From Escherichia coli (GTDB lineage: Bacteria; Pseudomonadota; Gammaproteobacteria; Enterobacterales; Enterobacteriaceae): 24,113 nucleotides of DNA. The notes beneath the pieces are model-generated. The model saw nothing but the letters and a program-made list of their open reading frames with translations, was not told where the DNA came from and did no database searches. This document shows, piece after piece, positions 22,706-24,054 of this stretch. The stretch lies in the NCBI RefSeq assembly GCF_003334355.1, contig NZ_QOWP01000044.1, one strand, 5' to 3'. The translations under genes and the position numbers were made by a program. The first letter of the stretch is position 1, and each line of letters begins with the position of its first letter.

Positions 22706-23839
22706 TTAAATCCTTAGCAGACGTTTGCAATTTGCAGCCGTTTGTTCTGCATCCTGAATATCCTGTTCAGACATTAAGCATCGCAACGCATCTTTTTCAA
22801 TCCAGGGGTTGTTATTTCCGGCAATTGTTAGCCACATCCATGCTTGTTTATTATCAATTTTAGTGCCTGTCCCCTGAGCATACATTGCCGCAGTCTGGTG
22901 TTGCGCTTCGGTCGACCCCAAACGCGTCGCTTTTTCGTACCAGTGCAGCGCATGATTTTCATCTTTTGCGATATCTTTTGTACCGTACAAATACATTTCG
23001 GCTAACAAAAATATCGCCTCTATTCGCCCACGCTGCGCTGCACCAGTAAGCCATTGAATAGCCTCAGCGTTATTTTCAGGATCATCATTGTTGGTTAAAT
23101 AATATTTTCCCAATTCATACATGGCATCCCCTGCCCCATCTGCTCCATTTTTTGCTGCTTTGGTAAACCAGTACAGCGCTTTTTCCTGGTCCTGTGGAAT
23201 ACTCTCACTTTCGCTATACAACCTGGCAGTATGATATTGCGCATATAAATATCCCTGTTCTGCTGATTGCAAAAACCAACGATGGGCCTGAACCTCATCG
23301 CGCTCCACGCCAATCCCTTGTATATACATTTGTCCCAACTCATACTGGGCAAGGTCATGTCCTTGAGTGGCGGCAGATAAATACCACTGTAATGCTTCTT
23401 CATAATTTCGTAATGGCTCATCCGCAAAGCGTGAGATACGGGCAAGCTTATATTGCGCAGATGCGTTGCCATTTTGGGCAGCAAGTAAAAACCATTTTCG
23501 TGCCTCACTAATATTCTTATCCGTGCCCCTTCCATCGCTATACATGATGCCCAGCGCATACTGAGCATCGATAATATTATGCTGCGCGGCGCGGGTAAAC
23601 CAGTTAAAGGCTAATTTTAGATCCTGTGAAACCTCATCACCTTCGTAATACATTTTGCCAAGAGAATACCAGGCAAGTGAATAGCCTTGCTCTGCAGCAT
23701 GTAAGCAGGACTGGAATACAGAAGATGGATAATAAAAAAGACCTTTTAGTTTTATGGCATTTAGCAACTTTTTATATCCACTATGATGTTGCATTGCTAA
23801 ATTATTGAAGCGTTCTGTTAATTTCCACTTGCGAATCAT
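22706..23839 (-). CDS. Sel1-like repeat (SLR/TPR-like) protein, about 8 repeats, no obvious signal peptide
   Basis: 377-aa ORF with recurring AQYxLGxMYxxGxGxxxDxxxAxxWFxxAAxQG units; AT-rich codon usage by eye; start ATG overlaps the upstream ORF stop (ATGA). An alternative start at Met16 is possible. Confidence 0.7.
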   Translation of the reverse strand: MIRKWKLTERFNNLAMQHHSGYKKLLNAIKLKGLFYYPSSVFQSCLHAAEQGYSLAWYSLGKMYYEGDEVSQDLKLAFNWFTRAAQHNIIDAQYALGIMYSDGRGTDKNISEARKWFLLAAQNGNASAQYKLARISRFADEPLRNYEEALQWYLSAATQGHDLAQYELGQMYIQGIGVERDEVQAHRWFLQSAEQGYLYAQYHTARLYSESESIPQDQEKALYWFTKAAKNGADGAGDAMYELGKYYLTNNDDPENNAEAIQWLTGAAQRGRIEAIFLLAEMYLYGTKDIAKDENHALHWYEKATRLGSTEAQHQTAAMYAQGTGTKIDNKQAWMWLTIAGNNNPWIEKDALRCLMSEQDIQDAEQTAANCKRLLRI

Positions 23840-24054
23840 TTTTCTTTTCGCCAGGAATATGATAAATACTCTATTAACAATGCCATATAGTTGTCTGATA
23901 GTTCAAATTCAGCGACTTTATTTAATACTGCGATATCAAACCATTTCAGGCTCTCTTCATTATCCTTTAATGATTGATAAATCGTAGCCATTTCCTTCCC
24001 GTTTTCCATTTCTTCCAGTGGAGACAAGTTACTGGCGGTAATGACTCCAACTTA
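23836..24054 (-). CDS. Hypothetical ORF upstream of and coupled to the Sel1 gene; reading frame open across the IS1 junction, so likely the 3' remnant of an IS1-disrupted gene (or a 51- to 57-aa ORF from an internal ATG)
   Basis: Track ORF begins at TTG 24027, but the same frame is open upstream to a stop at 24052-24054 inside IS1. Internal ATGs at 24009 and 23991 have weak Shine-Dalgarno context. Product (…MENGKEMATIYQSLKDNEESLKWFDIAVLNKVAEFELSDNYMALLIEYLSYSWRKEK) not recognised. Confidence 0.35.

Follow-up and report, generated by a model that had tools for sequence, protein, structure and literature searches.

A small ORF and an apparently coupled Sel1 gene beside IS1 in Escherichia coli as pieces of one decayed J-like/Sel1 gene

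The small ORF and the "Sel1 gene" that lie next to an IS1 element at the right-hand end of the window (the whole stretch of Escherichia coli DNA that was analysed, 24,113 nt) are almost certainly pieces of one dead gene, which was cut at its 5' end by IS1 and frameshifted by the loss of one base. RefSeq already describes this pseudogene correctly on a sequence that is 100% identical, and the feature therefore counts as already known: it is ordinary gene decay and nothing new. The original prediction had instead taken the two ORFs for a translationally coupled two-gene module, the upstream member of which, perhaps a toxin or an enzyme, had been severed by IS1.

On the minus strand of the window, the small ORF runs from a TTG (24027-24025) to a TGA (23838-23836) and is listed with 63 aa (23836-24027); gene callers label this piece 'hypothetical protein', with a length of 57 or 51 aa. 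Its stop shares an ATGA (23839-23836) with the start codon (23839-23837) of the 377-aa Sel1-repeat ORF, and its frame stays open upstream across the IS1 boundary, where the first stop is the natural TAA of insB (24054-24052). The TTG, the ATGA and the open frame, which had been noted at the outset, are all real in the sequence and no product of chance, and so is the IS1 boundary at 24036/24037 (Table 1); they stem from a 1-nt deletion and an IS1-associated deletion within a single gene. The adjoining element belongs to the IS1 family by its terminal inverted repeat, GGTAATGACTCC..., and by the 3' end of insB, recognised from the translated C-terminus; at its right end, the repeat reads ...GGAGTCATTACC. 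The 77-nt IS1 end also occurs, inverted, at positions 1-77 of the window, with 100% identity to annotated IS1A ends, and of each IS1 copy only 77 nt lie inside the window, which ends within the element. Read on the minus strand, the junction consists of ...GGAGTCATTACC followed directly by GCC AGT AAC TTG TCT .... Codon 205 (GCC, Ala205) of a 647-aa J-like/Sel1 gene (1,944 nt) begins at base 24036; codons 1-204 of this gene are absent from the window, and homology to two intact loci (L001 and L005) begins exactly at the junction ((6001-5389)/3 = 204).

Table 1. Features at the right-hand end of the window, in window coordinates.
Feature	Coordinates	Strand	Basis or remark
IS1 right end with the last 19 insB codons	24037..24113	-	100% identity to IS1A ends, thousands of E. 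coli records
IS1/gene junction	24036..24037	.	last IS1 base 24037, first flanking base 24036
Whole remnant: 5'-truncated, frameshifted J-like/Sel1 pseudogene	22706..24036	-	RefSeq pseudogene call on the PSS-12 copy, which is 100% identical
Pseudogene piece 1 (codons 205-270, then premature TGA)	23836..24036	-	ASNLSPLEEMENGKEMATIYQ...YSWRKEK* matches residues 205-270 of WP_001538823.1-type proteins
Frameshift site, A5 versus A6	23839..23843	-	single gap in the 1387-nt alignment
Pseudogene piece 2 (codons 271-647 and stop; Sel1-repeat solenoid)	22706..23839	-	the 'Sel1 gene' of 377 aa in ORF calls
gdhA, convergent with the remnant	21307..22650	+	colinearity with K-12 and annotation

When positions 22651-24113 were compared by megablast with 5,426 complete E. 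coli genomes, 355 genomes passed the cut-off of at least 80% coverage, among them PSS-12 (NZ_AP027697.1), which matches at 100% identity including the IS1 junction. The earlier suggestions that IS1 had cut a larger upstream gene and that the intact gene should be sought in relatives lacking the element are both borne out: in the IS1-free S1-ESP-02-A (L001), the entire matched stretch lies within a single CDS, which encodes a 647-aa "J domain-containing protein" (WP_001538823.1). A gene for a 566-aa "Hsp70 family protein" directly precedes this CDS, and the pair lies between topB and gdhA. The alignment of the window with this locus spans 1,387 nt, and its sole gap falls in a run of A, GAAAAAATGATT in the intact allele versus GAAAAATGATT in the window. 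The intact gene reads CGA AAA GAA AAA ATG ATT CGC (R-K-E-K-M271-I-R), whereas with five A the upstream frame reads GAA AAA TGA, the TGA falling across the in-frame Met271 codon. The loss of one A from the run of six necessarily makes the TGA overlap the Met271 ATG and thereby creates the apparent 'ATGA coupling'. What had been read as two coupled genes is one gene split by the change from A6 to A5, with the small ORF representing residues 205-270 of its protein and the "Sel1 gene" representing residues 271-647.

A 100-nt probe over the frameshift site matches 356 complete genomes; only the PSS-12 match is gapless, and the remaining matches listed all span 101 nt, with one base more in the A run. 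All eight of the intact loci inspected have A6, 647-649 codons and no internal stop. On the PSS-12 copy (AABK13_RS01755), the RefSeq/PGAP annotation is that of a pseudogene, 'frameshifted; incomplete; missing N-terminus'. Just two substitutions, in addition to the 1-nt deletion, separate the window remnant from the nearest intact alleles, which indicates that its inactivation and decay are probably recent.

In PSS-12, a complete 768-bp IS1 sits between ...TTCACAAAACG and GCCAGTAAC..., two points between which the nearest intact alleles have 2,364 bp of DNA; some 240 bp separate topB from this IS1. The DNA lost there begins 56 bp before the Hsp70 start codon and ends with codon 204 of the J-like/Sel1 gene, so that the Hsp70 gene is gone together with its promoter region and with J-gene codons 1-204. 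The PSS-12 IS1 has no target-site duplication, the adjoining 9-mers being unrelated, which speaks for an IS1-associated adjacent deletion and against a simple insertion. An adjacent deletion without target-site duplication is a classic outcome for IS1, and the replacement of 2,364 bp by a 768-bp element shows nothing unusual in this respect. By contrast, HUM3355 carries an independent, simple IS1 insertion in the same gene, at about codon 258, with the expected 9-bp duplication GGCATTGTT. For the window strain, the contig of which ends inside IS1, we infer the 2,364-bp deletion from PSS-12.

The ancestral locus, as seen in the intact genomes, carried a two-gene module, an HscC-type Hsp70 with a 647-aa J-like/Sel1 protein, between topB and gdhA. 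In one lesion, observed in PSS-12 and presumed for the window strain, the 768-bp IS1 replaced 2,364 bp by adjacent deletion; the promoter region and the Hsp70 gene were lost, and with them the start codon and J-like domain of the second gene. The other lesion, directly visible in the window, is the loss of one A from the A6 run in codons 269-271, leaving a TGA that overlaps the Met271 ATG. The two lesions may have arisen in either order. As a result, ORF finders split the remnant into a 57-63-aa ORF and a seemingly coupled 377-aa 'Sel1 gene'.

The remnant most likely does nothing: neither a promoter nor a Shine-Dalgarno sequence can be recognised, and the Hsp70 partner is gone, as is the Hsp70-interacting domain. 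In a promoter and terminator scan of positions 22600-24113, promoter-like sites were no commoner than in shuffled sequences and none stood at the IS1 junction, and no Shine-Dalgarno sequence precedes the ATG at 23839. The 377-codon ORF is still open, and insAB of IS1 runs in the same direction as the remnant; low-level read-through from insAB into the remnant is possible.

We think it very improbable that the freed 377-aa Sel1 domain is produced and under selection, perhaps as a decoy or as a dominant-negative binder of clients, such that the break would be adaptive. Beyond the intact ORF and the transcription of insAB toward it, this explanation can draw on other broken alleles: the identical 377-aa product results from at least five lesions upstream of Met271 (E259*, W266*, R267*, E269* and the A-run deletion), and the IS1 insertion in HUM3355 adds a further break in the same region. 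The contigs with the four premature stop codons keep the Hsp70 gene, the J-like N-terminus and A6. However, the look-up was made with the exact product and retrieves only lesions at codons ~258-270, which is a strong ascertainment bias, and the clustering of lesions upstream of Met271 is at least partly a matter of ascertainment. Lesions are also found elsewhere: KL53 has an internal stop near the C-terminus, IS903B sits within the Hsp70 gene in TUM14664, and the alleles broken at other sites include some whose truncated products measure 517, 364, 278 and 165 aa. The module is intact in 8 of 9 quasi-randomly sampled complete genomes, and the freed ORF begins at an ATG without a Shine-Dalgarno sequence, downstream of a junction without a promoter-like site. 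In its wider form, in which the recurrent lesions that free the 377-aa product would reflect selection that favours an untethered Sel1 domain or acts against the full-length protein, and the intact module may be a chaperone-like system with exchangeable client-recognition domains, we regard the idea as improbable. A separate impression, gained from KL53, HUM3355 and TUM14664, that the module is often inactivated was dropped when six of six further quasi-random genomes proved to be intact.

We also weighed whether A5 is a homopolymer error of sequencing or assembly, in which case the remnant would really be one 443-codon ORF. A one-base change in an A run is a typical site of such errors, and a single complete genome shows A5; even so, we consider an error extremely improbable, as A5 recurs in several assemblies. 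The window is 99.96% identical to PSS-12 over 7.4 kb (3 mismatches in 7,463 nt), yet chbC, which PSS-12 has intact, is broken off after codon 24 by IS1 at the left end of the window, and the window therefore represents a different isolate. The inverted 77-nt IS1 ends at both window edges fit a repeat-bounded contig from a k=77 assembly. The junction CATTACC/GCCAGTAAC together with A5 is present in PSS-12 and in the Logan runs ERR10505016 and ERR3469332, the latter having a 24,018-nt contig with both features and 7 further similar places. In the window, PSS-12 and the Logan assemblies, A5 is always found together with the IS1 junction. Moreover, a run of 5-6 A is short for a systematic error, and even if the error were real, the start codon, the J-like domain and the promoter would still be missing.

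Conservation across the break argues in the same direction as the intact alleles. A comparison of two intact E. coli alleles gives a pN/pS of 0.26 overall and of 0.32, 0.47 and 0.22 for codons 1-204, 205-270 and 271-647, respectively; the intact alleles are under purifying selection in the 647-aa frame. An exhaustive phmmer search with residues 1-300 as the query recovered homologues of 483-820 aa that are contiguous over residues 1-299 at 41-50% identity. A word-indexed protein search yielded only E. coli alleles and truncated variants, and the homologues with 40-50% identity needed the exhaustive search. In the alignment of homologues with 40-52% identity, E215, G217, Y224, W236, F237, L242, L250 and E260 are invariant within the part that corresponds to the small ORF, and invariant residues resume beyond the frameshift site (W275, F281, L284, H288 and Y292). 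In a collection of 15 billion proteins, the full-length protein has a cluster of 2,793 members, but a conserved stand-alone protein of ~57 aa, which would have spoken against a severed gene, did not emerge: the stand-alone cluster has 3 members, of 57 aa (4 contigs including PSS-12), 63 aa and 102 aa (partial). Among the exact-sequence clusters of this collection, there is no conserved stand-alone family of 57-63 aa with its own start, and the fragment has no match in PADLOC, NCBIfam or PHROGs. The fragment was also considered as a Sel1 repeat, and this was rejected: an HMM of the protein's own repeats, run on the N-terminal 330 aa, gave one half-repeat match (227-240, 6 bits), which is too weak.

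A native two-gene operon, in which an upstream gene, maybe for a toxin or an enzyme, was coupled to the Sel1 gene via the ATGA and cut by IS1, is left with a vanishingly small probability. The ATGA does exist, as does the open frame that continues into IS1, but apart from PSS-12 the genomes listed among the 356 have the extra A, the inspected loci read as a single 647-aa ORF, and the distant homologues (40-52% identity) are single proteins conserved over the site. The lost N-terminal sequence is a J-like domain and not a toxin or an enzyme; what is missing upstream is the gene's own J-like N-terminus and linker, together with a gene for an HscC-type Hsp70. Searches of the intact proteins against NCBIfam and Pfam show only Hsp70, DnaJ-like and Sel1 matches and no toxin, enzyme or immunity partner, PHROGs likewise gave nothing beyond generic matches, and PADLOC gave only marginal, unconvincing matches over short stretches of the intact-module proteins (PtuA, 8.9e-5; PDC-M61B, 3.3e-4). 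That the A run is a programmed frameshift or phase-variation switch for the full-length protein can be dismissed as next to impossible: the homopolymer lesion does adjoin a stop codon, but among the matches listed the tract is A6 in all other complete genomes carrying the stretch, A5 and A6 are well under the tract length usually tied to slippage, and in the A5 lineage a return to A6 would leave the gene non-functional, its start codon and N-terminus being lost as well.

The reading of a single decayed gene leads back to the intact Hsp70 and J-like/Sel1 module, which ~7% of complete E. coli genomes carry between topB and gdhA. Positions 78-22650 of the window are colinear with K-12 (chbC' to gdhA) at 99.29% identity. 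The K-12 homology ends with the gdhA stop codon, which forms the right-hand border of the variable segment between topB and gdhA, and resumes ~100 nt inside the 3' end of topB; in place of the module, K-12 has ynjI (DUF1266). In intact loci, the Hsp70 stop overlaps the start of the J-like gene (caATGAac), and this junction, which is deleted in the window, is where the genuine translational coupling of the module lies. Our literature searches found no link between HscC and phage defence, nothing relevant on bacterial combinations of Hsp70, J-domain, Sel1 and DUF1266, and no paper on the intact module.

The 647-aa protein consists of an N-terminal J-like domain, a conserved linker and ~8 Sel1 repeats. 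The repeats (Pfam PF08238) lie between residues 328 and 613, six with E<=0.001 and two weaker, and all of them fall within the 377-aa ORF of the window, which places it in the SLR family. In some strains, the Sel1 C-termini are duplicated and diverged. At the N-terminus, the Pfam DnaJ match is weak (residues 3-45, E=0.0039, 17.7 bits), and a sequence search of the PDB with residues 1-300 gave only weak J-domain matches to residues 3-48 (E=0.008-0.6). An AlphaFold model from a shallow alignment of 5 sequences is moderately confident (mean pLDDT 70.6) and predicts a helical N-terminal hairpin, poorly modelled regions at residues 53-187 and 264-309, three helices for the small-ORF part (210-262, pLDDT ~66-81) and, from about residue 310, a confident solenoid of Sel1 helical hairpins. 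At the position of the HPD motif, which lies in the loop between helices II and III and is required for ATPase stimulation, all alleles examined and distant homologues down to 40% identity have RPE. Stimulation of the ATPase is abolished when H is changed to Q or D to N in this motif, HPE being the one variant known to be tolerated (PMC13254874). With RPE instead of HPD or HPE, we file the intact protein as J-like, or as a "pseudo-JDP", rather than as a bona fide JDP. Its partner, the island Hsp70, is 43% identical to HscC, 37% to HscA and 34.5% to DnaK. In an alignment of DnaK, HscA, HscC and two island Hsp70s, it shows all four hallmarks of the HscC type: it is 550-580 aa long, lacks the counterpart of DnaK residues 76-101, carries extra residues in loop L1,2 of SBD-beta and has a deletion in lid helix B (PMC8215388).

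For annotation, the "Sel1 gene" and the small ORF should be treated as one pseudogene, and a toxin or immunity partner is not worth seeking. More generally, the loss of one base beside an in-frame ATG can give the false appearance of two genes coupled through an ATGA. The lead lies outside the window, in the accessory HscC-type Hsp70 and the J-like/Sel1 protein with an invariant RPE that replace ynjI. The RPE protein lends itself to asking whether a specialised Hsp70 can be driven by J-domains without HPD.

Among known systems, the K-12 ybeQ-hscC locus, with HscC, DjlB/DjlC and YbeQ/YbeT, is among the closest. The island Hsp70 (566 aa) is nearest to HscC and shares its hallmark indels, the N-terminus of the intact protein is 33-34% identical to the J-domains of DjlB/DjlC, and its repeats are 30-35% identical to YbeQ/YbeT. 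Unlike at the K-12 locus, the J-like and Sel1 parts are here fused in one protein, and the module occupies the topB-gdhA segment; the window has lost the Hsp70 gene and the J-like domain. The motif is HPE in DjlB/DjlC and RPE in the island protein, and DjlB/DjlC end in a hydrophobic C-terminal stretch, whereas the island protein ends in Sel1 repeats. J-domains in which HPD is non-conservatively replaced are a recognised class of unclear function (PMC13254874). Compared with the 'type IV' pseudo-JDPs that lack HPD, the intact protein has an invariant RPE and is coupled to its own HscC-type Hsp70, none of which survives in the window. Finally, the fusion of a J-type helical hairpin to a TPR/Sel1 solenoid is a recurrent JDP architecture (PMC10410713), and the intact protein, with its J-like hairpin and Sel1 solenoid, is similar in architecture to class C JDPs with TPR-type repeats.

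In the intact module, the HscC-type Hsp70 gene and the 647-aa J-like/Sel1 gene are joined by a genuine ATGA stop/start overlap (caATGAac), and this junction has been deleted from the window. Where J-domains have the HPD motif, all E. coli alleles read R-P-E, as do homologues with identities as low as 40% (alignment A2, which includes the distant homologues). The J-like N-terminus is a conserved non-HPD "pseudo-J" domain that is partnered with an HscC-type Hsp70 of its own. In some B2 strains, the Hsp70 gene is followed by two J-like/Sel1 genes in tandem (649 and 647 aa): residues 1 to ~198 are nearly identical, and the Sel1 part diverges sharply from about residue 199 (52% identity overall). 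This conserved/variable boundary coincides almost exactly with the IS1 junction of the window at codon 205.

The module has also been inactivated elsewhere. In HUM3355, the lesion is a simple IS1 insertion at about codon 258 with a 9-bp duplication (GGCATTGTT), while the module of KL53 (L005) carries an internal stop and the Hsp70 gene of TUM14664 (hit H127) is interrupted by IS903B; these are independent inactivations of one and the same module. Four distinct nonsense mutations (W266*, E259*, R267* and E269*), found in other isolates and metagenomes, lead to the same 377-aa called product, and all four alleles keep the A6 run. At least part of the clustering of these mutations before the 377-aa ORF reflects ascertainment by the exact-sequence look-up. 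The small-ORF cluster also includes a 102-aa partial protein (P0010) labelled "Shewanella sp. AS16" on a 309-nt contig, which is probably contaminating E. coli sequence in that assembly.

At the other end of the window, chbC (chitobiose PTS IIC) is interrupted after codon 24 by IS1, whereas it is intact in PSS-12, a complete genome that is otherwise near-identical. Given this difference and the inverted 77-nt IS1 ends at both termini, the window looks like an entire k=77 assembly contig between two IS1 copies, from a lineage in which IS1 expansion appears to be ongoing. Between nadE and cho, we also observe a match to the ES036 (CssrF) sRNA that passes the Rfam gathering threshold and scores 42.9 bits.

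Coordinates of the features in the window and in compared loci (L-numbers)
Feature	Location	Remark
Replacement interval	window 22651-24036	vs K-12 L004 5716-7100
Hsp70/J-like gene ATGA overlap	L001 5389-5392; L020-L025 1826-1829	intact loci (L001, S1-ESP-02-A)
RPE motif	L001 5476-5484	codons 30-32 of intact gene
Tandem J-like/Sel1 genes	L010 5755-9675	E. coli 536
HUM3355 IS1 insertion	L006 4221-4990	
Nonsense mutations	L012, L014, L015, L018	directly upstream of 377-aa ORF
IS1 end, 77 nt	at start of window 1-151	inverted relative to copy at 24037-24113
ES036 match	window 2301-2343 (+)	

Between topB and gdhA lies a replacement site. In K-12, it holds ynjI (DUF1266) together with a different final ~100 nt of topB, while the Hsp70/J-like module takes the place of ynjI in about 366 of 5,426 complete genomes. 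At the hscC locus of K-12, djlB and djlC are likewise flanked by DUF1266 genes (ybeR and ybeU).
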